This document shows positions 9,929 through 40,361 of a stretch of DNA of 40,361 nt, one piece after another (positions within the stretch are counted from its first letter, which is position 1; each line of letters starts with the position of its first letter). A program made the position numbers and the translations under genes. Source of the DNA: a virus; the IMG/VR virus record IMGVR_UViG_3300045988_155968, positions 1-40,361 of that record; one strand, 5' to 3'. A model generated the notes under the pieces. That model ran no database searches and was not told the origin of the DNA. It saw nothing but the letters and a program-made list of their open reading frames with translations.

Positions 9929-11728
9929 ATGGCTGCATTTGACCTCAATTCGCTTTACTTTTTGAAGAACGCGGCTCCGAAGACTACGAGCTTCGAGGAA
10001 GCCGCCGCGCCAATCAAGACTGGATTCGACCTCGGCACCGCGTACAACGAGAACTACAACAGGAACTCGCTCCAGAACCTTATCGCACAGCGCGAGAGCG
10101 AGGGCGTGCCGTTCGACCGTCTCTCCAACGAGGCGGCTAAATGGGACTTGAACGCCGCAGCAAACATCATGCGTCCCGAGGCTCGAAATAGCATAGACTT
10201 TAACTTCAAGCAAAGCGCCGTCGAATTTGACCGATGGCGTAAGGAAATGGCCAGAAGAATTTGCGGGCTCATTTTGCAGAAGTCCGACGAGCTCGGCATG
10301 GCGCCCGACCAGCAGTACGGAGTTCTCGACACGGCGGCTCATTACGTCGTTACCTACGACCCGGAGCTTGCGGAGTTCCTGATGCAGCAGGCGAACACTA
10401 GACGCTACAACGCCGCACGCACGGCACCGAAGATGCAGAACCAGGACGAAAGCAAGCTCTATCCTTCCGAGATTTCCTCAAGGAAGGCCAAGGCTAACGA
10501 TGTCGATTTCGCGGGCGCCAACCGCTTCCTCGGCACGTACCAGAACAACTCCGCCAACGTAGGAGCGATGCTTGCAAACCTGTATTCTACAGGAAAGCTT
10601 CCGTACTTGAAAAAGGCATGGATTGACGGCGTTACGCAGTTCGCCATGAACTCCGACCCTTCGACATTCATGAACAACTCTATATGGGACAACGCGACTG
10701 TATCCAAGGCCATAGAGCTTTTCATGAACGGAGGAATGGCGGAACAACAGGAAGATACGGTTATCGAGCAGGCTCCTGTTTCCACTCAAGTAAGCCCTGC
10801 TAAAGTTCCTTCCGCATCTAAAGTGAATTTGCCCGAAAACGACGATTACACGAGATCCATAAGGTCATACTACATACCAGGTAACGCGGCACGCGGAACG
10901 AGGGAAAACCTCAACGTGTCGAGGATTGACAAAGACTTGAAAAAGTACTACGACAACCTCGAAGCGTTGCAGTACATGGTGGGCGTGCTTTCGCAGGACA
11001 ACCAGCGATTTGCCGGAGTGAAGGGAGATGCCGGTGCCAACAGCGAAAACGGGGTCGTTAAGGTAAACCGCGAAAAGGTTCAGAAGCGCATAGACGAGCT
11101 CAAGGAACTTGAACGCGGCGGGTTTACGCCCGAAACCGCCAATGCTCTCAAACTTTCTGGTAAGACCGGACAGACTCTTTCGGACGAAATCGCAAGATGG
11201 CAGAGAATACCGAAGATAATAGACGCCTACTACCAGAATCCGGGCGCGATACTTCCGCCTCTCGTAAGGACGTTGCTTCCCGAAGAACGTGCTACCGACG
11301 AGGACGTAAAGAGAATCATAAAGTCCGACCTCGGCGATGACGGTTATAACAAGCTGTTCAACGCGATAGCGGCTACGGACAATAATATGCTAGGTTCGCT
11401 ATTGAGCAAGGAAGCCTACGCGAACGCCGTTAGAAAAGTTGCTCCAATAATCATGAACAACATTAACAAGGAGTATAAGGCTCTTGTCAAGGCTAACAAC
11501 GGCGATATAGGAAAGGTTGACAACGCACTTCGCGAAGCGTACAGGTACGACGACGACGTAATCGACTACGTGAAGGGCAACAAGATTCTTTTCACTGTCA
11601 AGAAGTACTACGACAAGGAAGCCGAACGTGTAAAGAACGAGCGCGAAAAGAAGGAAAAGGAAGTTTTCGAGCGAGGAAACACGCCTTCTAAAAAGAAGTA
11701 CACGGAAGCCGACTGGGATAACTTTTAG
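9929..11728 (+). CDS. Large hypothetical virion protein, 599 aa, a possible ejection or internal protein.
   Basis: It has an RBS (AGGAG), and its size and position resemble P22 gp16/gp20-type ejection proteins. Confidence 0.4.
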   Translation: MAAFDLNSLYFLKNAAPKTTSFEEAAAPIKTGFDLGTAYNENYNRNSLQNLIAQRESEGVPFDRLSNEAAKWDLNAAANIMRPEARNSIDFNFKQSAVEFDRWRKEMARRICGLILQKSDELGMAPDQQYGVLDTAAHYVVTYDPELAEFLMQQANTRRYNAARTAPKMQNQDESKLYPSEISSRKAKANDVDFAGANRFLGTYQNNSANVGAMLANLYSTGKLPYLKKAWIDGVTQFAMNSDPSTFMNNSIWDNATVSKAIELFMNGGMAEQQEDTVIEQAPVSTQVSPAKVPSASKVNLPENDDYTRSIRSYYIPGNAARGTRENLNVSRIDKDLKKYYDNLEALQYMVGVLSQDNQRFAGVKGDAGANSENGVVKVNREKVQKRIDELKELERGGFTPETANALKLSGKTGQTLSDEIARWQRIPKIIDAYYQNPGAILPPLVRTLLPEERATDEDVKRIIKSDLGDDGYNKLFNAIAATDNNMLGSLLSKEAYANAVRKVAPIIMNNINKEYKALVKANNGDIGKVDNALREAYRYDDDVIDYVKGNKILFTVKKYYDKEAERVKNEREKKEKEVFERGNTPSKKKYTEADWDNF

Positions 11729-21929: not shown

Positions 21930-21984
21930 TGTGGACGATGCTCCTGTTCGCGATCGTCGGCGTGCTAATCGACGAGGGCGTGAT

Positions 21985-22374
21985 ATGATTCTCTCGATTC
22001 CATACGAGACGCCGAGTAAGAAGAACTCCCGCGTGATTAACCGTCGCACGGGTCGTTCGTTCCCAAGCAAGGCGTACCGTGAATGGCACGAGAACGCGTC
22101 CCTGTGGCTAAAGTATCATTACAACCTCGCTCCGCAGGGAGACGGGCCGTTCATGCTCCGCATACGCTTCTATCACGGGACTAATGCGAGGTGCGATTCC
22201 GACAACAAGGTATCTTCGATTCTCGACCTTCTCGTCGATCTTGGAGTGCTCCCGGACGACCGATGGCAAGTCGTGCGGAACATAAACGTGAGCAACTTCT
22301 ACGAAAAAGGGCATCCATCCGTACAGATTGGAATTTTCCCGTTGACGGACACGGATAAATTGAGTATATTGTAG
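21985..22374 (+). CDS. rusA: RusA-family Holliday junction resolvase, 129 aa.
   Basis: The N-terminus ILSIPYETPSKKNSR...RRTGRSFPSKAYREW resembles the RusA opening, and acidic motifs RCDSDN and DDRWQV match RusA catalytic Asp clusters. It has an RBS (GAGGG). Confidence 0.65.
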   Translation: MILSIPYETPSKKNSRVINRRTGRSFPSKAYREWHENASLWLKYHYNLAPQGDGPFMLRIRFYHGTNARCDSDNKVSSILDLLVDLGVLPDDRWQVVRNINVSNFYEKGHPSVQIGIFPLTDTDKLSIL

Positions 22375-22448
22375 TAAACGCATGGGTTATCCCGTCGTTT
22401 AGTGTTGCGGGGATGGCCGAGAGGCCATCCCTATTTTTCATCCTCCTT

Positions 22449-22469
22449 ATGTGTGCCTTTCGTGTGCCA
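22449..22469 (+). repeat. 21-bp direct repeat ATGTGTGCCTTTCGTGTGCCA, copy 1, a candidate integrase arm-type site in attP.
   Basis: It is near-identical (20/21) to 22679..22699, and the two copies bracket the tRNA-Met. Confidence 0.5.
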
Positions 22470-22483
22470 CCACGTCCGAAAGC

Positions 22484-22557
22484 GGGGTTTTAGCTCAATC
22501 GGTTAGAGCGTCGGACTCATAACCCGTTGGTTCCCGGTTCAAGTCCGGGAGGCCCCA
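22484..22557 (+). tRNA. tRNA-Met (anticodon CAU), an initiator-like anticodon arm with two mismatches, lying inside the putative attP.
   Basis: Manual cloverleaf: acceptor GGGGTTT/AGGCCCC (two G-U pairs), D-arm GCTC-AATCGGTTA-GAGC, anticodon loop CTCATAA, T-arm CCCGG-TTCAAGT-CCGGG, discriminator A. The anticodon stem has only 3 clean pairs. Confidence 0.65.
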
Positions 22558-22594: not shown

Positions 22595-22678
22595 TACATT
22601 CCGGCTTATTTTTATCTTTTCCACACCGAATTATCTGTTATCATGTATTATTATTTTCTATCTTGAAAAATCAAGTGT

Positions 22679-22699
22679 ATGTGTGCCTTTTGTGTGCCA
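22679..22699 (+). repeat. 21-bp direct repeat, copy 2 (ATGTGTGCCTTTTGTGTGCCA), immediately upstream of the integrase RBS.
   Basis: See copy 1. Confidence 0.5.
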
Positions 22700-22711
22700 G
22701 GAGATATACCA

Positions 22712-23743
22712 ATGAAGAACTACTCTATAAGCCAGCGCAAGAAGTCACGAGGGAACCTTACGTGGTACGGACGGACCTTCGAGAACGGAGTGCTGCTGTC
22801 GGAGATTTCACTGAAAACCGAACGGAAGGCCGACGCGAAGGCGTGGCTCGACGCGATGAACGCGTCGAGGTTCATGCCGGAGAACATGTTCCGCCTTCCG
22901 GGAACGGAAAAGGACATGGCAGTAAAGGACGCGGTGCGCTCGTTCATGGACTCCGTGTCGGCTTCCAACGGGACGGATTCGAACACCTACAGGGCGTACT
23001 CGTACAGGATAGCCCACTGGGCCCGTTTCTGCGAACGGAACGGGGTATCCACACTCGTTTCTTTCACGAGGGATATTGCGACAAGGTACGTGTCCGAAAC
23101 GGCCTCCACGCACGCCCCTAAGACCATGAGGGAGATGGTCAGACTCCTTCGCCAGTTCTTTGCGTGGTGCGCCGAGACCTATTCCATCGAAGGATACGAC
23201 CCGATGAAGACGGTGAAGTCTCCGAAGCTGGAGAAGCGCGAGAAGGCGTTCTGGACTCCGGCACAGATAGACGCCATTCTCGACAACGCGCCCACGCCGG
23301 AGTTCCGACTGTTCTGGGCTTTGATGGCGTTCGCTGGCCTACGGCACACGGAGGCGTGCTCGTTCGGCCCTTCATCGATCGTAGGCAAGGAGATAAGGGT
23401 AGTCGGCAAGGGTAACAAGGAAGCCTTTCTCCCCATAGGAAAAAGGCTCGAAAAGGAAATATCGGAAGTGAAAATCTACGACGGTATGTTTTCGACGCAG
23501 AGGTACAGGAAGTCGGAGCGTTGCATAGACACGCTAAAGAAGGCGGTGTCGGAAGCGGGTCTGCCGAGCGAGGACGCGACCAACCACAAGTTCCGTCACA
23601 GCTTCATATCGAATCTTCTCCGAAGCGGCGTGACCGTTCCGGCGACAGCGCGTCTAGCCCGTCACGAGGACCCGAAGGTGACGATGGAGACGTACTCGCA
23701 TCTGCTCCAGGAGGACTTGCAGGAGTCGATAGACGTTCTTTGA
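22712..23743 (+). CDS. int: Tyrosine integrase (phage integrase family).
   Basis: Box I AFAGLRHTEA (Arg), box II HKFRHSFISNLLRSG (H-x-x-R) and the catalytic Tyr in METYSHL are present, with an N-terminal core-binding-like domain. It has an RBS (AGGAGA). Confidence 0.9.
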   Translation: MKNYSISQRKKSRGNLTWYGRTFENGVLLSEISLKTERKADAKAWLDAMNASRFMPENMFRLPGTEKDMAVKDAVRSFMDSVSASNGTDSNTYRAYSYRIAHWARFCERNGVSTLVSFTRDIATRYVSETASTHAPKTMREMVRLLRQFFAWCAETYSIEGYDPMKTVKSPKLEKREKAFWTPAQIDAILDNAPTPEFRLFWALMAFAGLRHTEACSFGPSSIVGKEIRVVGKGNKEAFLPIGKRLEKEISEVKIYDGMFSTQRYRKSERCIDTLKKAVSEAGLPSEDATNHKFRHSFISNLLRSGVTVPATARLARHEDPKVTMETYSHLLQEDLQESIDVL

Positions 23744-30620: not shown

Positions 30621-30646
30621 TGTTTTATTTCTCCGTTTGTGTTGTT

Positions 30647-32578: not shown

Positions 32579-33057
32579 TTCCTTCTTTTGCGTTTCTTCG
32601 CCACGGACGCGCAGTACGCCTTGCACGCGGCTTCCCAGTTCATTATAGGGTTCCCGTCCTTGTCCTTGCCCTTGCGTTCCTTCAAGTTGATCTGTGCCCA
32701 TTCCACTGCGTCATCGACGTCTATTCCGTTATCTACTGCGAAGTCTATAACTTCCTGTTTCGTCTTCGGTAGCGACTTGGCGTTTTCAACCTGTCCCCGT
32801 TCTCTCCATCTCTTGAGCGCGGCTTTTCTCCTAATCTCGGCGAAGTCTATAGATTCGTTAATCATTATTGATTCTATGGAGCCTTCTTGAGAACTGTTCG
32901 ATATGAGCCTTTTTATCATTACCTTGAATCTCTTTCCGGCCTGGCAGTCCGTCATGGTCAGAATTTCAATCCAGTCAGAAGGGAAGAACTTGAACCAAGT
33001 GAACCTCTTACGATTTCTCTTTGGCTCGTCTATGCTCATCTTCGACCAGCCTGTCAA
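32572..33057 (-). CDS. Hypothetical protein with a DUF1376-like N-terminal motif, a possible replication or primosome-associated protein.
   Basis: N-terminal FTWFKFFPSDWIEIL...GKRFKVMIKRL resembles the W-x-F...DW...G-x-Y pattern of DUF1376 phage proteins. Low certainty. Confidence 0.35.
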   Translation of the reverse strand: MTGWSKMSIDEPKRNRKRFTWFKFFPSDWIEILTMTDCQAGKRFKVMIKRLISNSSQEGSIESIMINESIDFAEIRRKAALKRWRERGQVENAKSLPKTKQEVIDFAVDNGIDVDDAVEWAQINLKERKGKDKDGNPIMNWEAACKAYCASVAKKRKRRNG

Positions 33058-33163
33058 CTATCGAACCGATGGAGTCACGCTTGTTTTCTTTTTTGGACTC
33101 CTCCTTCATTTCGACTAGCAACTTGTGAGTATGTCCGCTCACCTTTACCATTTTTTCGTTCAT
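33008..33163 (-). CDS. Cro-like ribbon-helix-helix regulator, about 51 aa, the first gene of the leftward early operon.
   Basis: Internal start MNEKMVKVSGHTHKLLVEMKEE with an RBS (GGAGGTAGCA). Alternating hydrophobic pattern after the beta-strand region. It is divergent from the CI-like gene. Confidence 0.45.
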   Translation of the reverse strand: MNEKMVKVSGHTHKLLVEMKEESKKENKRDSIGSIVDRLVEDEHRRAKEKS

Positions 33164-33264
33164 TGCTACCTCTGTCCTGTTATAAAAAGAAAAGTGTTTT
33201 GTCACTGTATGTTCACTTTTACGATACAAAGATATAATATTTTTCAACAAATAGTGTAAAAAAA

Positions 33265-33332
33265 GTAAACAAAAATAGTTATTTTTTGTTTACAATCGCC
33301 ATTTAAACGTTATTCGAGTCCAACTTGTTTAC
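33265..33332. promoter_or_regulatory. Genetic-switch operator and promoter region: a 29-bp near-perfect palindrome GTAAACA-N15-TGTTTAC (33265..33293) plus a third TGTTTAC half-site (33326..33332) in an AT-rich divergent intergenic region.
   Basis: Inverted and direct repeats read from the sequence, lying between the divergent RHH (-) and XRE-HTH (+) genes. Confidence 0.5.
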
Positions 33333-33353
33333 TTTTTTTCTACCTTGGTTCGC

Positions 33354-33776
33354 ATGGACCGCAAAAAGTCGCTTGAAATATTTTCAAGCGGATTCGACAA
33401 ATTCATAAAAAGGAACGGCTACACGCTGGAACAGGTAGGCGATTTGCTTGGCTGCGGAAGGTCAAACGTACACAAGATAAAGTCCGGGAAAAATTTTCCG
33501 TCTATGGACGGCGTTTTCATCCTTGCGGAAAAGGGGATGACACTCGAAGAAATTTTTGGCGACGAGCTTGCGGACAAATTAATAAAAAGCGCATCCAAGA
33601 ACAACGTAACGGACAACAGCGAAAGCCCTAAAGTAAACGCATTGCGGGACGACACAAGCTTCATAAATTCGGAAGCGTTCAAGCAGGGAGTACTGAAAGT
33701 GTTGAGCGAGCAGCAGATTCTAGAGTTCAAGATGAACCAGTCGCTGGACAAGCTCATGGGAGAAATAAAGAAATAA
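33354..33776 (+). CDS. CI-like repressor (XRE-family HTH), about 140 aa, the only rightward gene within the early region.
   Basis: The HTH is LEQVGDLLGCGRSNVHKIKSGKNFPS. It is divergent from the Cro-like gene and convergent with the upstream leftward operon. Confidence 0.55.
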   Translation: MDRKKSLEIFSSGFDKFIKRNGYTLEQVGDLLGCGRSNVHKIKSGKNFPSMDGVFILAEKGMTLEEIFGDELADKLIKSASKNNVTDNSESPKVNALRDDTSFINSEAFKQGVLKVLSEQQILEFKMNQSLDKLMGEIKK

Positions 33777-33781
33777 AAAAA

Positions 33782-33811
33782 AGGACGGCACGAGCCGCCC
33801 CGGTACGTCCT
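33782..33811 (-). terminator. Hairpin AGGACG...CGTCCT with a T-run on the minus strand (A-run 33771..33781), a terminator at the end of the upstream leftward operon.
   Basis: 6-bp GC stem with the internal mini-hairpin GGCACGAGCC. Confidence 0.45.
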
Positions 33812-33827
33812 CCCATGCGGGATCGCG

Positions 33828-34115
33828 TCACTTGTCCCTCTTTTCGACAAATTCCTTTTTAAGCTCCTCAAGCTGGACAGTAGGCTGTTCCTGTAGCGAG
33901 AGCAGCACGACCTTCTTGGAAAGTTCCTCCTCCATGAGAGCGTATGCGCGTTCCATAGAATTGAGAAGTATCTCCAGCACCTGTTCGCTGCCCATTCCTT
34001 TATTGAGGGCTTCCCTTGAGAATCCCGAGTGTTCCTTGAGCCACAGTACGGTGGACTTCATGGACTCACGTTTACCCTTGCAGTAAGCAATCTCGAAGAG
34101 TTCGTCCGAGTTCAT
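33828..34115 (-). CDS. Hypothetical protein, about 95 aa.
   Basis: ORF with an RBS (AAGGAGAAAATAAA-ATG). Confidence 0.4.
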   Translation of the reverse strand: MNSDELFEIAYCKGKRESMKSTVLWLKEHSGFSREALNKGMGSEQVLEILLNSMERAYALMEEELSKKVVLLSLQEQPTVQLEELKKEFVEKRDK

Positions 34116-34382
34116 TTTATTTTCTCCTTGCGTGTTGTTTTGGACATGGATTTCAATATACATTTTAATCCCACAAAATCAATAGGCAACAATAAATTAG
34201 TTTGTCTAGTATGCACGTGCATACATTTGTAATGCACTACCTATGCCATAACATAACATATCATAACATAGAGTATATCTATATTAAGCATTATATTCTA
34301 TAAAAACTCTCTCTATATAAAACCCTCTTCTCTAGAGGAGAGAGTGTGAGAGAGGGGATTTTAGATAGAGCTAGGGGAGAGT

Positions 34383-34409
34383 AAAAAAAATGGCCCTCCG
34401 TAGAGGGCC
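34383..34409 (-). terminator. Rho-independent terminator (GGCCCTC-CGTA-GAGGGCC plus a T8 run on the minus strand).
   Basis: Perfect 7-bp GC stem. The A8 run at 34383..34390 is read as U8 on the minus strand. Confidence 0.55.
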
Positions 34410-34438
34410 GGTCCGTCAACGAAATGACGGCGGTGCGT

Positions 34439-34734
34439 TCATTCTGTTTTTTCGTATATCTCCATAAACTTCTCCTCATCCCTGGTAAGCATGTAGCACC
34501 TAGAATCCCTCGACGACCACACGGGGCAGCGCCCGTCCTCGTCGCAGAACATAACCGCGCACTTGACACGGTGCCACATGGCGCTCGCGTCCTGGCGAAT
34601 GGTCGTCTTTTCCTTTTCTTCTTTTTTCTGATCCTTCGGGGAATCCGGGAGGACCGAACACGTGACGGCCACGGCCGCGTATATGGCGAGCAGCGCAGCG
34701 CTTCCCAGTAGAGCCTTCTTGTCGTCTTGGATCA
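34439..34734 (-). CDS. Putative secreted or lipoprotein, about 98 aa, Cys-rich. Superinfection-exclusion-like candidate.
   Basis: Start MIQDDKKALLGSAALLAIYAAVAVTC has a signal peptide with a Cys at the end of the h-region, plus 5 more Cys in the mature part. ATGA overlap with the upstream HTH gene. Confidence 0.4.
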
Positions 34735-34968
34735 TATTCCCAGGTCCTCCTTCTTGAAGCCGTAGAACTTCCGGTTCTTTACTATGAACACCCTGTAGGC
34801 CCGTATCTCGCCCGTCTGGATGCCCTTCCAAAGCGAACGCCTGGGGATGCCCAGCGCCAGCGCCGCAGTCGTCAGGTCAACCCACCCTGGCGGGAGCGGC
34901 ACGCGGAACCCCCTGGGGTTACCCATCGGATACCCCGTCATTTTCGTTTTCTTGCGCACTGGAGCCAT
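34732..34968 (-). CDS. HTH DNA-binding protein (Xis/AlpA-like).
   Basis: The HTH is LTTAALALGIPRRSLWKGIQTGEI. The start is ambiguous (M1 or M10). Confidence 0.45.
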   Translation of the reverse strand: MAPVRKKTKMTGYPMGNPRGFRVPLPPGWVDLTTAALALGIPRRSLWKGIQTGEIRAYRVFIVKNRKFYGFKKEDLGI

Positions 34969-35209
34969 TTTTAGGCCATCCCCCTATTCCCCTAGCCCTC
35001 ATCTCCTTCATGCGCTCAGAACGCTGCTTGCGGACTTCCTCGGGGATATCCCTCTTTATCTTCTTCCGGTTTTGCTCGACGAACCCCAGTACATCGACCA
35101 CCAGTGAATCCAGCACGGCGGCCGGGTCCTTGCCCGCCTCGACGTCGGTGCGGGCCTTCTCCGCTGAAAATTCGAGCCACGGGATAGAGTACGGTTTCAA
35201 GTATGGCAT
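34919..35209 (-). CDS. Hypothetical protein, 96 aa.
   Basis: ORF. Confidence 0.35.
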   Translation of the reverse strand: MPYLKPYSIPWLEFSAEKARTDVEAGKDPAAVLDSLVVDVLGFVEQNRKKIKRDIPEEVRKQRSERMKEMRARGIGGWPKNGSSAQENENDGVSDG

Positions 35210-35287
35210 TGTTATCTCCTTTCCACGATTACCACTCTTGTTTGTTAATTATGAATATAATTAAATTATTTGAAAAAGCAACGTTAA

Positions 35288-35788
35288 TTAAATTGCCATC
35301 CTGAGCTGCGACGCGTCGAACTTTCCGCAATTCCTTATCGCTTCGGCGCATTCGTAAGCCTGCGCGAACGTGAGGCGGTCGCCGGGGAGCATTTCACACA
35401 CCGCTTCCCATATTTCCGGGTGTACGTTGCTTTCGAGGTTATCCAGCTCTTCCGCCTTGTCCATGTACTCCGAAAATTCGTCTTCCTTCTTCTCTAGCTC
35501 TTCCTCCAGCGACTCACAGTGCTTTTCGAGGTCCTTGATTTTCTTCTCGTTCATTTCGTACGCCCTTTTCGTGGCGGTCTCCACCATGGCGTTAAATTCT
35601 TCTACCTGGTTGAAACTTAGCATGTAGTTTGACGTAATTTCGAGCAGCGAGGCCACGTCTTTCGCCGTGAAGCTTCCGCCGGTCATCCTCACCACTTCGG
35701 CCGCGTGACGGAGAGCGGAAAACAGAGATTTCGTTTCCCTCATTTCGTAGCTTATCGAGTGAGCTATTTTTTGTCCTTTTGTAAACAT
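35288..35788 (-). CDS. Hypothetical protein, 166 aa.
   Basis: ORF preceded by the conserved CAACACTAAAC leader element. Confidence 0.45.
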   Translation of the reverse strand: MFTKGQKIAHSISYEMRETKSLFSALRHAAEVVRMTGGSFTAKDVASLLEITSNYMLSFNQVEEFNAMVETATKRAYEMNEKKIKDLEKHCESLEEELEKKEDEFSEYMDKAEELDNLESNVHPEIWEAVCEMLPGDRLTFAQAYECAEAIRNCGKFDASQLRMAI

Positions 35789-35814
35789 GGTCTAGTCCTT
35801 GGGCCCGTGGCCCG

Positions 35815-35866
35815 GTTTAGTGTTGATTAACGGCATGCGGGGGCGCGAATCCCCGCGAGCGCTTTA
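35815..35866 (-). promoter_or_regulatory. Conserved intergenic element, copy 1: hairpin GCGGGG-N8-CCCCGC followed by AGCGCTTT on the + strand and by CAACACTAAAC (as read on the minus strand) 27 nt upstream of the ATG.
   Basis: Near-identical element at 37219..37282, and the 11-mer alone at 37947..37957. Confidence 0.45.
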
Positions 35867-36880
35867 GGCCGTGAAAACGTTGAGTTTGCCGAACTTCTCT
35901 CCGTCCCATGCGTCGAAGAGCGCCTTTGCGACTCTCATCCCGTTCGGGGTGTTCTGCCGCTGCCACGCGCCGAAGCGTGGACTCCAGCGGAAGCCGTTGG
36001 CCTTCAGCCTTCCGCGCGTCTCCTCTTCCGGCTTTCCGTCGAAAAAGAGCTGGACGCGTGCCGCCTCGTGGTTGTTTTCCATCCTCAAGCCTTCTTTTTC
36101 GCTAACGCCTAGTTTCAAGCCTTCGGCCTTTTCTTCTTCGACTATTGCGCGCGCCTTCTTGAGCTGTTCGAGGCGTGCGGACTTGTTTCTAATGTTCGCT
36201 GTTTCGTTAGAGATGCAAAAATAATCGCTTCTGTACATCGGACATCTTTTCAAAAATTCGTTTATTTTTGCTTTTGCTTTATCGCTCATGTTTTCGCACT
36301 GGTCCGCGTTGCCGTTCTTTCGAATTGACTTGTTCCAAGACAAATGCGCCGCGTGTTCTTCCTTCAAATATTCGATGTGCGCCTCCATCTTTTCGACGGC
36401 CAGCGGATCATCTGCCGCAATCGTCACGCCGTAACCTTGACGTCCTTTTCTCCAGAGTTCAATCTGCTTTGCGTTCGGCGTGGCCTTCATGAGCATGTCG
36501 ATAGTGTTTTTGATAAAGCGTTCTTTCTTGCCTTCAAATTCCTTGTACTTGTTTTCGGCGGCATCCAGGCGCTTTTGATAGCGGCGGTTGTTGAAGTTTG
36601 CAGGACCGGCAATAAACCACGGCGTATTAGACGCGTTGAAATTCGCCTGTGTTACATACTGTTCCTTTACGAGTGCGCGCCAGCTCTGCTCGCGTTCTTC
36701 AAGGATTTCTGCCTGTTCTTCGGTCCAGCTTCCGAGAATCTTGTAAAGCTTCTTGATTTCGTCGCAATTTGCGAAGTATGCGCTTTCGTTCTGCGCGTCT
36801 CTTTCGAGGCCTGAGCCGCGGTCAAAGAAGCTGTTGTTGTTGGCGCCTTCTATGAGGTTTTGGGGAATGATCGTTTCCAT
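35864..36880 (-). CDS. Hypothetical protein, 338 aa, with a conserved-looking C-terminal motif (FFDGKPEEETRGRLKANGFRWSPRFGAWQRQ).
   Basis: ORF with an RBS (AAAGGAGATAACACC-ATG). The family is not recognised with confidence. Confidence 0.5.
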   Translation of the reverse strand: METIIPQNLIEGANNNSFFDRGSGLERDAQNESAYFANCDEIKKLYKILGSWTEEQAEILEEREQSWRALVKEQYVTQANFNASNTPWFIAGPANFNNRRYQKRLDAAENKYKEFEGKKERFIKNTIDMLMKATPNAKQIELWRKGRQGYGVTIAADDPLAVEKMEAHIEYLKEEHAAHLSWNKSIRKNGNADQCENMSDKAKAKINEFLKRCPMYRSDYFCISNETANIRNKSARLEQLKKARAIVEEEKAEGLKLGVSEKEGLRMENNHEAARVQLFFDGKPEEETRGRLKANGFRWSPRFGAWQRQNTPNGMRVAKALFDAWDGEKFGKLNVFTA

Positions 36881-36884
36881 GGTG

Positions 36885-37202
36885 TTATCTCCTTTTGGTC
36901 GTGAGCGTTACAAATCCGTACTTTTCCTTTGCTTCTTTCTTCGGCATGATTTCCCACAATCTGGAATCGTAGCGCAAATAAAGACTTTTGCGCCCGTCAC
37001 GGAAAAGCCCGTCGAATTTGTTGCGTTTGTTGCTGTAGCGCACTGCGTCGCATACCCGGGGGAAAATCCGGCTTTCCTGGTCGTCGAATTCGTCAAGAAG
37101 GAACCTTTCGCACTCTTTTTTCGTTCCATCGAAAGCGATACAAGTTTCTTCCCTGTAGCGGCTTGCAATATAAGGGTCCGTGCATTGATATACTACTACC
37201 AT
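36885..37202 (-). CDS. Hypothetical protein, 105 aa.
   Basis: ORF preceded by conserved element copy 2. Confidence 0.4.
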   Translation of the reverse strand: MVVVYQCTDPYIASRYREETCIAFDGTKKECERFLLDEFDDQESRIFPRVCDAVRYSNKRNKFDGLFRDGRKSLYLRYDSRLWEIMPKKEAKEKYGFVTLTTKRR

Positions 37203-37218
37203 TTTTTTATCCTCGTTT

Positions 37219-37282
37219 TGTTAGTGTTGTTTAGTGTTGCTATGGGTCGCCGGGGTCGCGGATCCCCGGTAGCGCTTTCGAC
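37219..37282 (-). promoter_or_regulatory. Conserved intergenic element, copy 2 (hairpin GCCGGGG-N8-CCCCGGT plus AGCGCTTT, with CAACACTAAAC duplicated).
   Basis: See copy 1. The ATG at 37202 lies 27 nt downstream of the motif. Confidence 0.45.
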
Positions 37283-37301
37283 CTGTTTTTTTGTTGTTGG
37301 A

Positions 37302-37931
37302 TTATATTTCAAATATTTCCGGGTGCTCCCTGCGAATACTGTGAACTCCGGTTCTACTTATAATCACGTGATCCAGCACCGGTATTTGCAATATTTTCCC
37401 GGCGGCGGTCAAAACACGTGTTATGCTTATGTCTTCGGGGCTCGGGTTCGTACTTCCGCTCGGGTGGTTGTGGGCAAAAATAACACTTACGGCGTTATCC
37501 TTCACAGCTTCTCGGAACGCTTCGCGCGGGTGCGCCGGCGCTTGGTTGACTAGGCCGGTAGTAATGATGTGCTTGTTAATTATGTGGTTTTGGCTGTCCA
37601 GCGTGACGCATACTAGATGTTCTTGATCTTCGTACTTGAGACTTGCAAGAAGGCGTGCTATATATTCCGGCTCCGTCACGCTTTCGGCTTTTTCTCCGAC
37701 GATGTAGCGCGCGGACATTTCGCAACATGCAAGAACTTTACGGGCCATAGCGAGCCCAACGCCGCGTATTTTTGTAAGCTGTTCGACCGTCGGAATGGTT
37801 ACGGATTCAGAAAGAAGCTTTTCAACCTTGAACGCAATATCAACGTCACCAAGGATCAAGGCTAATAAATAGCTTGTGGATTTTTCGCGATAGCTTGTAA
37901 AAGCTTCGTTCTGGGTAAATGATACGTACAT
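37302..37931 (-). CDS. radC: RadC-like JAB/MPN-domain protein.
   Basis: JAMM motif HNHPSGSTNPSPED and the typical RadC length and architecture. Confidence 0.8.
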   Translation of the reverse strand: MYVSFTQNEAFTSYREKSTSYLLALILGDVDIAFKVEKLLSESVTIPTVEQLTKIRGVGLAMARKVLACCEMSARYIVGEKAESVTEPEYIARLLASLKYEDQEHLVCVTLDSQNHIINKHIITTGLVNQAPAHPREAFREAVKDNAVSVIFAHNHPSGSTNPSPEDISITRVLTAAGKILQIPVLDHVIISRTGVHSIRREHPEIFEI

Positions 37932-37959
37932 GGTTTTAACCTCGTGGTTTAGTGTTGTT

Positions 37960-38460
37960 GTTTCTTCTTTATGTATATAATATAAGTAATTTAATTAAGA
38001 TAGTCAATAGGTATTATATATTTTTAATTAAAATAATTAAGATTTTAGTAGATAAATTGTTAATAGATTGTTTATTTATTGAGAATTTTGTATTATTCAA
38101 TATATATATTTATTTATATATAGATATATAACTTATATGTACATACAAAATATATAAATCTATATTCATGATTATATCAATATATATTAGATTATATGTA
38201 ATAATATATATAAACTATATCATATAAACTATATAGATGTTATGTACAACGTTTATATAAATAGATATAAAAGATTGAATAAGTAAATAGTGTATTAACT
38301 GTTATATGTTTAAATTCTTTTACATCTACAATCACATTTATTTTATATATTTATGTCCGTCGAAAAAAAATCCTGTAGATATTTTCTAGGTCGTTAAATA
38401 CTTCTAAGTACCGGAAAAAAGTTACAGGAAGCAAAGAAAAAGATTCAAAATTTTTCTATC
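37960..38460. promoter_or_regulatory. About 500-bp extremely AT-rich, TATATA-repeat-rich non-coding region between the leftward early block and the rightward late block, a candidate origin or divergent promoter region.
   Basis: No ORFs and low complexity, with repeats such as ATATATAAACTATAT. Confidence 0.4.
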
Positions 38461-38565
38461 ACGCTTTTTCTTTCTCATGATCACGTGAGCATCGAAATAA
38501 ATTCCACACAAAAAGAAAATCCAACTTCGAAGCGTTGCCGATTATCCATATTATGTAAACTACAT

Positions 38566-38598
38566 GCCCAGTTGTGCACTTGCGCGGCTGGGCTTTTT
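38566..38598 (+). terminator. Hairpin GCCCAG-N16-CTGGGC plus T5 upstream of the terminase genes.
   Basis: Seen in the sequence. Confidence 0.45.
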
Positions 38599-38797
38599 CG
38601 TTTTCCGTCCGGATCAGTGAGCGAACCCCCCCCGGGGTGTATGGGGGTAGCATCCGAAACTGGGGCAGGGGGGCGGGGAAAAGACACTATATGCCCCCCG
38701 CCTTGCGAGTGTCCGATTCTTACGTAAATTTTTTGTTTACATACACCTATGGAGAGCCCTATTTCCATGGGGTGTATCCGTACTTTTAAGCCGTGGA

Positions 38798-38829
38798 GGG
38801 TCCAAGGGGGACCCGTTGAATTTTTTTTT
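38798..38829 (+). terminator. Hairpin GGGTCC-AAGG-GGGACCC plus T9 immediately upstream of the terS RBS, a candidate attenuator needing antitermination.
   Basis: GC stem then GTTGAATTTTTTTTT. The terS ATG lies 15 nt downstream. Confidence 0.5.
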
Positions 38830-38843
38830 CGGAGGAAAGATCC

Positions 38844-39308
38844 ATGGCTACGGAGAAGAAGGTATCGAGCGCGACCAGGCGTTACGTCCCTACGTCTGAG
38901 ATGGTGAAGTCGTGGCGTTCCGCGTGGGACGAGGTTGGCGGTTCGAACCCGTACTCCATGCGCATAGACAGGATTCTCAGGGGTTCCGGTTTCGGAATAC
39001 ACGACGTGAAGACGCGCATAGGCCTCGTGCGTTCGAAGAAGGACAGGGACAGGAACCAGGACGAGGCGGACCTGCTTTCTCTTGACGACGAGCTTCGTTT
39101 CATGAGCGAGCAGGGGCTTTTCGACAAGTGCACCGAGAGCACGAACGGGGCGATATTCCTCCTGGAGTCGAAGTTCGGCTACAGGAAGGGCCAGGACCTG
39201 AACCTCAACGTGGACCCGCAGCAGGTGAAGAAGGTTATCCGTTGGGGTGACGAGCAGGAAGAGGCGCCGAAACTTGAGGAAGTCCCGAAGCAGGCTGCGG
39301 AGGGATAG
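38844..39308 (+). CDS. Putative terminase small subunit, 154 aa.
   Basis: It has an RBS (GGAGGAAAGATCC-ATG) and sits immediately upstream of terL with a 3-nt gap. Assignment is by position only. Confidence 0.45.
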   Translation: MATEKKVSSATRRYVPTSEMVKSWRSAWDEVGGSNPYSMRIDRILRGSGFGIHDVKTRIGLVRSKKDRDRNQDEADLLSLDDELRFMSEQGLFDKCTESTNGAIFLLESKFGYRKGQDLNLNVDPQQVKKVIRWGDEQEEAPKLEEVPKQAAEG

Positions 39309-39311
39309 CTC

Positions 39312-40361
39312 TTGGGCGAGGTGGTCGAGGTTGTCCAGTTCACGAGCCCGAAGTTCAAGGTGCTGTACCCCGAGTACTCGAAGGGTAAGAAGTACCTCGT
39401 GTTCAAGGGCGGCCGCGCGAGCACTAAGAGCTGGAGCATAGCGAAGGCGCTCATAGACCATGCGTGCACCTACGAGGGATTGCGTGTCGTCTGCGGGCGC
39501 GAGATCATGAAGTCGATACAGGAGTCGAACAAGAAGCTCCTGGAGGACACGATAACGAGGGCCGGCAAGTGGGGCGATTTCAAGACCACCGCGAGCTACA
39601 TCGAGAACACGCGTACGGGTGCGCGTTTCACGTTCATGGGCATGAGGGACAACCCGAACAGCGTGAAGGGCCTAGAAGGCGTTGACATCTTCTGGGGCGA
39701 CGAGGCGGACAGTTTCAGCCAGGAATCCCTAGACCTCCTGTGCCCCACTATGCGTAAGCGCGGGTGCAAGGTGATTTTCAGCTACAACCCGCAGCTCCCG
39801 ACTACTCCGGTGGAGAAGTTGCAGCAGGACAGGGCGTCGCAGTGCGTGACGGTGTTCATCAACTACCTGGAGGTCCTCAAGTACCTCTCGCCGGAAGTGA
39901 TTTCCGAGGCGGAGGAGTGCAGGGAGAAGGAGCCGGAGAAGTACCGCTGGATATGGCTCGGCGAGTACAGGATGCAGTCGCAGGCCACGTTCATCCCGCT
40001 CCGTTTCGTTTCCGAGGGCTACAGGAAGCCGCCGGTAAGGACGAACGAGGGTGTCGTCGCCGGTCTCGACATCGGCCTTTTCCACGACAGGTGCGTGATG
40101 GTCGTTAGGCAGGGGCTGAACCTGCTGTTCGGCAAGGAATGGAAGATGGTTGAGAACAAGCTCCTCACCTCGCAGGTGGTGGGTCTTGTCGCGAAGTGGG
40201 GCGTGCAGCGCCTCGGCATAGACGCAGTGGGGCAGGGCTACCCCGTGTACCAGGACCTGAGGGCGGAGCTCGGCGAGGTGGCGGTGCCGCTGAACACGGG
40301 CGTGGAGGCGAGGAACCGGAAGAAGTACGTGCGCCTCAGGGACGAGATGTGGGGAATGGAG
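39312..40361 (+). CDS. terL: Terminase large subunit, N-terminal part, with a TTG start and GGAGGG RBS. It continues at 1..419 across the circular junction.
   Basis: Walker A-like VFKGGRASTKSWSIAKA and a Walker B/DEAD-like IFWGDEAD. The ORF is open to the window end and in frame with 3..419 because 40243..40361 equals 1..119. Confidence 0.85.
   Translation, partial: MGEVVEVVQFTSPKFKVLYPEYSKGKKYLVFKGGRASTKSWSIAKALIDHACTYEGLRVVCGREIMKSIQESNKKLLEDTITRAGKWGDFKTTASYIENTRTGARFTFMGMRDNPNSVKGLEGVDIFWGDEADSFSQESLDLLCPTMRKRGCKVIFSYNPQLPTTPVEKLQQDRASQCVTVFINYLEVLKYLSPEVISEAEECREKEPEKYRWIWLGEYRMQSQATFIPLRFVSEGYRKPPVRTNEGVVAGLDIGLFHDRCVMVVRQGLNLLFGKEWKMVENKLLTSQVVGLVAKWGVQRLGIDAVGQGYPVYQDLRAELGEVAVPLNTGVEARNRKKYVRLRDEMWGME
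40243..40361. repeat. 119-bp terminal duplication identical to 1..119 (circular contig closure).
   Basis: Exact identity of the window start and end. Confidence 0.95.

Follow-up and report, generated by a model that had tools for sequence, protein, structure and literature searches.

A portable cassette with a predicted two-helix hairpin and a CA-rich leader between early genes of an apparently temperate phage

We analysed the IMG/VR virus record IMGVR_UViG_3300045988_155968, positions 1 to 40,361 (the window, i.e. the whole 40,361-nt stretch of DNA, apparently an entire temperate phage of ~40 kb), with respect to an 11-nt word, CAACACTAAAC, that precedes three leftward early genes of the RadC operon. 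The results showed that two of these copies follow a predicted two-helix RNA element whose stems covary among related phages, and that the words stand in CA-rich leaders shortly before a Shine-Dalgarno (SD) sequence.

The explanation that we favour, and to which we give about an even chance, is an RNA-level intercistronic cassette consisting of a CA-rich leader and a two-helix hairpin, which also acts as a DNA homology patch. The 11-mer would then be the word most strongly conserved within a 5' leader that is unstructured, poor in G and rich in A/C (with ACA), and that serves genes needing de novo ribosome loading, either promoter-proximally or after a long intercistronic spacer. In the two spacers the 11-mer would be the 3' half of a portable ~85-nt cassette with the proposed order two-helix hairpin, U(U)AAA, CA-rich tract, SD and ATG. 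The CA-rich tract may work as a ribosome standby site or translational enhancer, and the hairpin would keep the GC-rich spacer folded apart from it, probably serving also as a 3'-end stabiliser, a processing point or a factor-binding site that sets one cistron apart from the next. As DNA, the cassette would be a homology patch for the exchange of early accessory genes between phages.

The repeated word and its leaders

The original prediction for this DNA had placed CAACACTAAAC 27, 27 and 16 nt upstream of three ATG codons, and these positions and offsets were correct (copies B, C and D in Table 1). A fourth exact copy at 22407-22397 (copy A) had been missed, and all four are on the minus strand. 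When one mismatch was allowed, the same four sites were recovered, compared with 0.46 expected, and none of 100 dinucleotide shuffles reached four, in agreement with the earlier claim that the repeat is beyond chance. With two or three mismatches the pattern showed no overall enrichment in the window.

Copy D has no preceding hairpin; the SD (GAGG, 37943-37940) follows 3 nt further on, and the copy is located in the 5' untranslated region (UTR), ~21 nt past the -10 hexamer of the predicted early promoter. Copy C is overlapped by a 10-nt tandem near-copy, CAACACTAAC (37219-37239 together, minus strand), and the SD of the 105-aa gene, GAGGA, occupies 37214-37210. Copy B begins 5-6 nt past the outer stem of the structured element described below, and between it and its SD there is a small hairpin, GGGCC-ACG-GGCCC, which in the relative L002 reads GCGCC-ACG-GGCGC, a compensatory change. 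The distance between the 11-mer and the downstream SD is 3-15 nt for the RadC, 105-aa and 166-aa genes, and the 11-mer was unpaired at the leader copies in the predicted minimum free energy (MFE) folds. The position of the motif 5' of the SD, its predicted unpaired state and the presence of homologous cassettes at the same junctions in relatives bear out the proposal that a leader module punctuates the early operon. Within the RadC operon, leaders with the motif or with CA-rich sequence were confined to genes preceded by a spacer or a promoter, and the overlapping or tightly packed genes were without them.

A third spacer of the RadC operon, 35210-35287, has no hairpin; it contains a promoter-like TTTTCA-17-CATAAT followed by the CA-rich leader TTAACAAACAAGAG. 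The matching stretch of the relative L139 (2114-2215) has a promoter-like site, TTGACT-17-TTAAAT.

The leaders were compared with those of relatives, whose sequences are designated by L-numbers (L132-L135 are more distant relatives, and L238 is a contig of a Fibrobacter metagenome-assembled genome, MAG). Position D reads AAACACTAAAC in L001 and L002, and L152 has the window leader with one substitution before a different first gene. At the place orthologous to the copy C leader, L002 has CAACACCAAACAACACAAAAC. The word after element B is CAACACTAAAC in L001, CAACACTGAAC in L128 and L152, CAACATTGAAC in L139, CAACAACAACACCAAAC in L136, AAAACAAGACAACAATCAAAAA in L138 and TCAACACAAATAAAC in L002. 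The sequences L132-L135 are without the 11-mer, yet A/C-rich sequence precedes the SD. An A/C-rich tract followed by an SD and an ATG was kept after 18 of the 18 elements of both types described below, with 12-45 nt from the outer stem to the SD, and SD and ATG within 24-60 nt; the pooled composition of the tracts was A 49%, C 29%, G 12% and T 11%, with 1-4 ACA per tract. Since the words of the relatives drift while the CA-rich composition stays, what is conserved is an unstructured leader poor in G and rich in CA. The exact 11-mer, which had been taken for a conserved signal, has 1-2 substitutions in relatives or is replaced by other CA-rich words, and is judged from this comparison to be an ordinary lineage-specific leader word.

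Scans of viral contigs for CCCC-N(6-20)-CAACACTAAAC gave only single random matches, and scans for TATATTATA-N(12-24)-ACACTAAAC gave only two already-known contigs and AT-rich noise. The relative L136 has a word of its own, CCAAACC, which occurs four times (9109, 9520, 9536 and 11284), each time on the sense strand and in a leader; this repetition suggests that the leader words of a genome evolve in concert. In L135, the leader of a 169-aa gene (9950-10052) contains a 36-nt tandem duplication, two copies of TAAACAACAGAACCGTCACCCTTTTTACAAACTAAC.

It is known that ACA or CA-rich sequence beside the SD enhances translation and that CA-repeat tails act as ribosome standby sites (Yang et al. 2014, PMC3879156; Sterk et al. 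2018, PMC5934652). The leaders found here resemble these enhancers in that, by MFE folds and composition, a single-stranded, G-poor tract of A/C and ACA is located immediately 5' of the SD, and the drift of sequence among relatives fits a composition-dependent signal.

Table 1. Positions of the leader words, structured elements and associated features in the window
Feature	Position	Strand	Remarks
Copy D of CAACACTAAAC	37947-37957	-	16 nt before RadC ATG 37931
Copy C of CAACACTAAAC	37239-37229	-	27 nt before ATG 37202 of 105-aa gene
Copy B of CAACACTAAAC	35815-35825	-	27 nt before ATG 35788 of 166-aa gene
Copy A of CAACACTAAAC	22397-22407	-	plus strand reads GUUUAGUGUUG
Element copy C (type 1)	37238-37286	-	covariance-model match 60.7 bits, E 3e-13; MFE fold
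Element copy B (type 1)	35825-35873	-	covariance-model match 74.4 bits
Small hairpin GGGCC-ACG-GGCCC	35813-35801	-	between copy B and SD AAGGA 35800-35796
Predicted early promoter TTGACT-17-TATATT	37979-38007	-	consensus scan, 10/12 matches; AT-rich tract precedes
338-aa gene	35864-36880	-	upstream neighbour of element B
CAACAC-containing leader AAAACAACACGCAAGGAG	34127-34142	-	before 95-aa gene, ATG 34115
Degenerate leader word AACAACACAAAC, then GGAG	30634-30644	-	before AAA_24 gene, ATG 30620
RusA-like gene	21931-22374	+	PHROG 34, E 6.7e-14
Intrinsic terminator	22409-22432	+	10-bp stem, tetraloop, then ATTTTTCATC; ends late/RusA transcript; not a type-1 element

The two-helix element

The GC hairpins in front of copies B and C were found to be the inner helices of a larger two-helix structure. 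Its outer stem (5-7 bp) is separated from the 6-bp inner stem by a 9-nt bulge on the 5' side only, AAAGCGCU(N), and the inner stem closes a loop of 8 nt, A-N-Y-CGCG-M. Element C has the outer stem GGUCG/CGACC, the bulge AAAGCGCUA, the inner stem CCGGGG/CCCCGG and the loop AUCCGCGA. In element B the outer stem is GGCAU/AUGCC and overlaps the stop codon of the 338-aa gene; the bulge is AAAGCGCUC, the inner stem GCGGGG/CCCCGC and the loop AUUCGCGC. On the minus strand, AAAGCGCT precedes both inner hairpins, and AGCGCT precedes hairpin B. Both stems thus differ compensatorily between the two copies. A near-identical GC hairpin right after the stop of the preceding gene had been claimed; this description is accurate for B (GCGGGG-N8-CCCCGC, with the TAA of the 338-aa gene directly before it), whereas at C the stem is a compensatory variant (CCGGGG-N8-CCCCGG) and the element begins ~20 nt past the RadC stop.

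When homologous copies were folded independently, the two-helix architecture was the MFE structure in 12 of 12, and the downstream CA-rich tail was unpaired. In an alignment of eight sequences, 96.9% of the cells could pair and double changes were found in 6 of the 12 pairs. The corresponding values for 13 sequences were 94.5% and 7 of 12, so that the covariation check that had been suggested for homologous phages turned out positive; slid registers gave only ~45%, and 0 of 500 shuffles reached the observed values. The covariance model was built from seven copies, and the 13 copies found with it are those of the window (two), L001/L151, L002/L150, L128, L135, L136, L138, L139, L141 (a truncated copy), L147, L148 and L152. 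A further full-length element in the Fibrobacter MAG contig scored 56 bits. Element B is kept after the orthologous gene in L001, L002, L128, L136, L138 and L139. Searches of Rfam matched only two tRNAs across the window and, within 35700-38100, gave no credible match even when E values up to 10 were admitted.

A second type of element (type 2) was found upstream of a DUF7659 gene in L002, L128, L138, L136/L155 and L141. It has the same two-helix plan as the window elements (type 1), with the bulge A-A-C/U-GCGUA, the loop G-Y-CGCG and the stems CCCGGG/CCCGGG, CACCGG/CCGGTG, TCCAGG/CCTGGA and CCATGG/CCATGG. Because MAFFT placed the two types out of structural register and the type-1 covariance model scores type-2 copies only ~10 bits, type 2 was compared by individual folds.

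A pseudoknot between loop and bulge (GCGC:GCGC or CGCG:CGCG) was set aside, as only 3 bp of it are universal; a canonical H-type pseudoknot is impossible because the spacing from the loop segment to the inner stem's 3' arm is 0 nt. The hairpin perhaps contributes to stability or to factor binding.

Promoter and terminator signals

The original prediction had considered a terminator or processing hairpin combined with a promoter or leader module. In the version with terminator and promoter, the hairpin would end the upstream transcript and the 11-mer would be, or belong to, a promoter restarting the next gene. The intergenic site directly after stop codons fits such an arrangement, and the GGGG...CCCC stems are like those of the promoter early stem-loops (PeSLs) of T4-type phages, which do terminate (PMC2839356). 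A sigma70 promoter scan of the minus strand over 35789-35863 and 37203-37301, however, gave no -35/-10 pair in either cassette, and a terminator scan of either strand did not list hairpins B and C, which are followed by AUGCCGUUAAUC and CGACCCAUAGC and have no U-tract on either strand. Elsewhere in the window, the early promoter and several terminators made of a hairpin and a T-run were detected by the same scan, and the hairpin beside copy A, on the plus strand only, was the single one among the hairpins at the copies to have the form of an intrinsic terminator. The motif is too near the SD to leave room for a start site and a leader, and copy D and its homologues, ~21 nt downstream of a conserved sigma70-type -10, are therefore inside the transcript. 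No phage RNA polymerase or sigma factor was found among the scanned open reading frames (ORFs), most large plus-strand ORFs being outside the scan. We consider it highly improbable that the cassette is a terminator followed by a promoter.

A promoter for an RNA polymerase of the T7/T3/SP6 kind was rejected despite the likeness of CACTAAA to T3 CACTAAAG, the upstream region from -17 to -9 not being conserved between the copies and no phage RNA polymerase having been found among the scanned ORFs.

The invariance of bulge and loop speaks for a specific partner, and factor-dependent control of transcription is therefore the main rival of the intercistronic RNA cassette. According to the logic of lambda nutR/tR1 or HK022 put, modification of RNA polymerase, or loading of Rho together with the flanking C/A-rich, G-poor tracts, would gate the downstream early genes. 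The lambda nut site consists of boxA (CGCUCUUUA-like) and boxB, a 5-bp stem with a GNRA-like pentaloop, and is used by the N protein; rutA and rutB flank boxB. The element is similar to these systems in being a structured RNA after the first early gene with C/A-rich flanks, conserved loops and covarying stems. It typically follows the first one to three genes (in the window, L135, L147, L148, L152 and L238), invariant loops on covarying stems are the pattern of a specific binding site, there are C/A-rich tracts on both sides of hairpin C, and a canonical terminator at 34409-34392 closes the operon. On the other hand, no boxA-like sequence, no boxB-like 5-bp stem with a pentaloop and no two-stem-loop put architecture are present. 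Compared with the nut consensus, the element has the bulge AAAGCGCU and a loop of 8 nt, no N-like gene is conserved after the promoter, and proteins resembling N or Q were not identified. Since the first early gene varies among the relatives, the operon offers no conserved gene for a partner. At 12-45 nt and abutting the SD, the CA tracts are short for a rut site, and read-through of the terminator at 34409, which borders an immunity-like region, would seem harmful. Taken together, we regard elongation control by the element as unlikely.

Portability and mosaic joints

The genes upstream of the type-1 element are the 338-aa gene in most phages, RadC (window copy C), and genes of 98 aa (L152), 72 aa (L148), 54 aa (L147) and 55 aa (L135). 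The products encoded downstream of element B across the phages are unrelated (166 aa, 193 aa, 57 aa and 230-232 aa). Thus, the cassette is portable, having been found behind six different genes and in front of at least four unrelated ones. Nucleotide identity at B was 0.85-0.96 upstream and 0.93-1.0 within the element, followed by a variable tail and ~0.6 from the ATG onward, ~0.6 being the level of unrelated sequence under the global alignment used. The element of L152 is chimeric, the 5' half being as in window C (AAAAACAGGTCGAAAGCGCT) and the 3' half as in window B, with the joint in the shared AAAGCGCT core. This mosaicism would have been brought about by recombination.

Could the cassette then act only as DNA, either as a linker in recombination or as the target of a DNA-binding protein, with no role as RNA? 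The mosaic joints at the cassettes and the chimeric element are in keeping with this, as are the palindromes AGCGCT (type 1) and ACGCGT (type 2) within the 'bulge' and the CGCG cores. Watson-Crick covariation cannot separate RNA from cruciform DNA, and the wobble pairs that could indicate the folding strand, two G-U on the sense strand versus one A-C, are thin evidence. Against these points, the orientation of the copies relative to transcription is uniform, an SD and an ATG follow all of them at a constrained distance, and a homology patch needs no compensatory upkeep of two helices. Furthermore, the type-2 bulge of L136 has AUGCGU, which is non-palindromic. An exclusively DNA-level role appears rather unlikely to us.

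The orphan copy beside the RusA-like gene

Copy A is located between the stop of the RusA-like gene (22374, plus strand) and the plus-strand terminator, beyond which there are a tRNA-Met and the integrase gene. It lies 14 nt before the ATG of a 91-aa minus-strand ORF, which we do not accept as a genuine gene, because it runs antisense inside RusA and because L142 lacks the region of its start. The RusA locus of L142 (90% aa identity) has no CAACACTAAAC motif after RusA. Copy A resembles an entire D-type initiation region (motif, ACGRGG, AACC, ATG), so that it may be a cassette left orphaned at a mosaic joint. In 22375-22407, an inverted repeat, UAAACG...CGUUUA, around GGGUUAUCCC makes a second stable hairpin (z -5.96), which is predicted to sequester half of copy A on either strand (the 3' half on the minus strand).

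The possibility exists that the plus strand of copy A, GUUUAGUGUUG, is the seed of a small RNA (sRNA) derived from the RusA 3' UTR, which would silence the three early leaders in a GcvB-like manner. It would explain why a fourth exact copy exists without a gene, in opposite functional orientation and 2 nt from a U-tailed hairpin, and why the leaders of one genome are identical while those of relatives drift. CA-rich enhancers, moreover, are known sRNA targets (PMC3879156). However, the putative seed has its first 6-7 nt base-paired within the stable plus-strand hairpin, the sequence is missing in L142, the closest RusA relative, and the 21 kb of L136 contain no antisense copy of CCAAACC. The likeness of copy A to the D-type initiation region fits an orphaned cassette instead. 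RNAduplex energies between the RusA 3' UTR and the leaders did not discriminate, because long interior loops allowed control leaders to score equally well. An antisense seed at copy A is in our opinion very unlikely.

A bolder combination of the rival proposals is that the two-helix element is a cis-regulatory RNA, so far undescribed, in phages and prophages of Fibrobacter, bound by a specific phage or host factor and gating swappable early accessory (possibly anti-defence) genes, and that the 11-mer is the target of a GU-rich antisense seed in the late RusA 3' UTR (copy A), bringing about late shut-off. We consider this quite unlikely.

Close to copy A, a 22-nt direct repeat, TATGTGTGCCTTTYGTGTGCCA (22448-22469 and 22678-22699), brackets the tRNA-Met (22484-22557, plus strand). 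The repeats are located just upstream of the integrase gene (22712-23743, plus strand) and may be integrase arm sites or a feature of attP.

The phage, its host and the early operon

The window encodes a P22-type portal, RadC, a PD-(D/E)XK nuclease, an AAA_24 ATPase, a pentapeptide-repeat protein, a RusA-like resolvase, an integrase and two tRNAs. The contig from which it comes is an ENA metagenome assembly. A blastn search of INPHARED with positions 33000-40361 gave zero matches, and so did a search of genome contigs with the portal protein. A prophage-like region of Fibrobacter sp. UWH4 encodes a homologue of the 338-aa protein (58% identity), and the MAG that carries the structured element in contig L238 is of a ruminal Fibrobacter; on these grounds, the host is probably Fibrobacter.

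The predicted promoter TTGACT-17-TATATT at 38007-37979 is, judged by its consensus match, the one that drives the leftward RadC operon. A promoter of this type, CTATTGAC..TATATTATA, was present before the first early gene in all relatives examined (L001, L002, L128, L136, L138, L141, L135, L148, L152 and L238). At its other end the operon is closed by the canonical terminator at 34409-34392, adjoining the immunity-like region.

The immunity-like region (33250-34430) contains a plus-strand gene for a 143-aa protein with weak helix-turn-helix matches, a divergent 95-aa gene, several promoter-like sites and the canonical terminators 34409-34392 and 33801-33782. The stretch 38010-38480, between the early promoter and the terminase side, is rich in AT (~36% GC) and contains degenerate repeats of the ATATA type. 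A long ORF on the minus strand (38481-39461) shows a GC-position pattern like that of non-coding DNA and is probably not a real gene.

For the 338-aa protein there was no match in Pfam or in a profile search of PDB, and its sole PHROG match was a family labelled 'primase'. The C-terminal FRWSP...AWQR motif resembles DUF3560, although the Pfam scan returned no family. In its gene content (RadC and the 338-aa protein; SpoVG in L132), the operon is similar to an accessory or anti-defence island.

Discussion

Several observations weigh against the explanation of the cassette as an RNA-level leader and hairpin. Translation enhancement by CA-rich sequence would be carried over from E. coli and Salmonella, enterobacteria in which such enhancers were shown by mutagenesis, to a phage whose host is probably Fibrobacter. 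Exact identity of the 11-mer at four sites exceeds what an 'unstructured and CA-rich' leader needs. The invariant bulge and loop are superfluous for a simple insulator, which points to a specific partner. Copy A serves no gene and is partly paired. Finally, the conservation of element B is not above that of its flank, because the close relatives are also 85-96% identical over the adjoining 3' end of the 338-aa gene. We nevertheless infer that the CA-rich tract enhances translation, and that the hairpin has a molecular role between the cistrons.

The closest known analogue of the cassette is the PeSL of T4-type phages, which joins a sigma70 early promoter to a terminating stem-loop (Arbiol et al. 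2010, PMC2839356; Comeau et al. 2014, PMC4122927). Both are small composite intergenic cassettes, repeated in the genome, with a GC-rich GGGG...CCCC stem-loop and a 3' end formed by the SD and start codon of the next gene (here after 18 of the 18 elements). Both flank variable early accessory genes, with recombination within the cassette, as exemplified here by the chimeric element of L152. They differ in that the PeSL has a consensus sigma70 promoter, whereas the cassettes described here are without promoter hexamers and have a CA-rich leader instead; and in that PeSL stem-loops terminate, whereas the present element has two helices, an invariant bulge and loop, and no U-tract.

The early operon of T7 offers another comparison. 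Its intercistronic hairpins are RNase III sites with an internal loop; they do not terminate, they leave a stabilising 3' hairpin on the upstream mRNA, and they stack a helix of ~20 bp (about two turns). The element likewise is a hairpin with an internal loop between early cistrons of one polycistronic transcript, but with 11-13 bp in total and a one-sided 9-nt bulge it is short for a canonical substrate.

Cassettes that unite expression signals with recombination joints are one route to the plastic accessory-gene regions of phages, and the idea of such a dual role has so far rested mainly on the PeSLs of T4-type phages. The cassette described here would be a promoter-less counterpart from a temperate phage with a P22-type portal, the host of which is probably a rumen Fibrobacter, and it contains a covariation-supported RNA structure that is absent from Rfam. 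The 49-nt motif and its covariance model provide a handle for finding such early regions in rumen viromes, and the leaders offer a testable case of CA-rich leaders beyond enterobacteria. The RNA structure and its PeSL-like portability are of more interest than the 11-mer itself.

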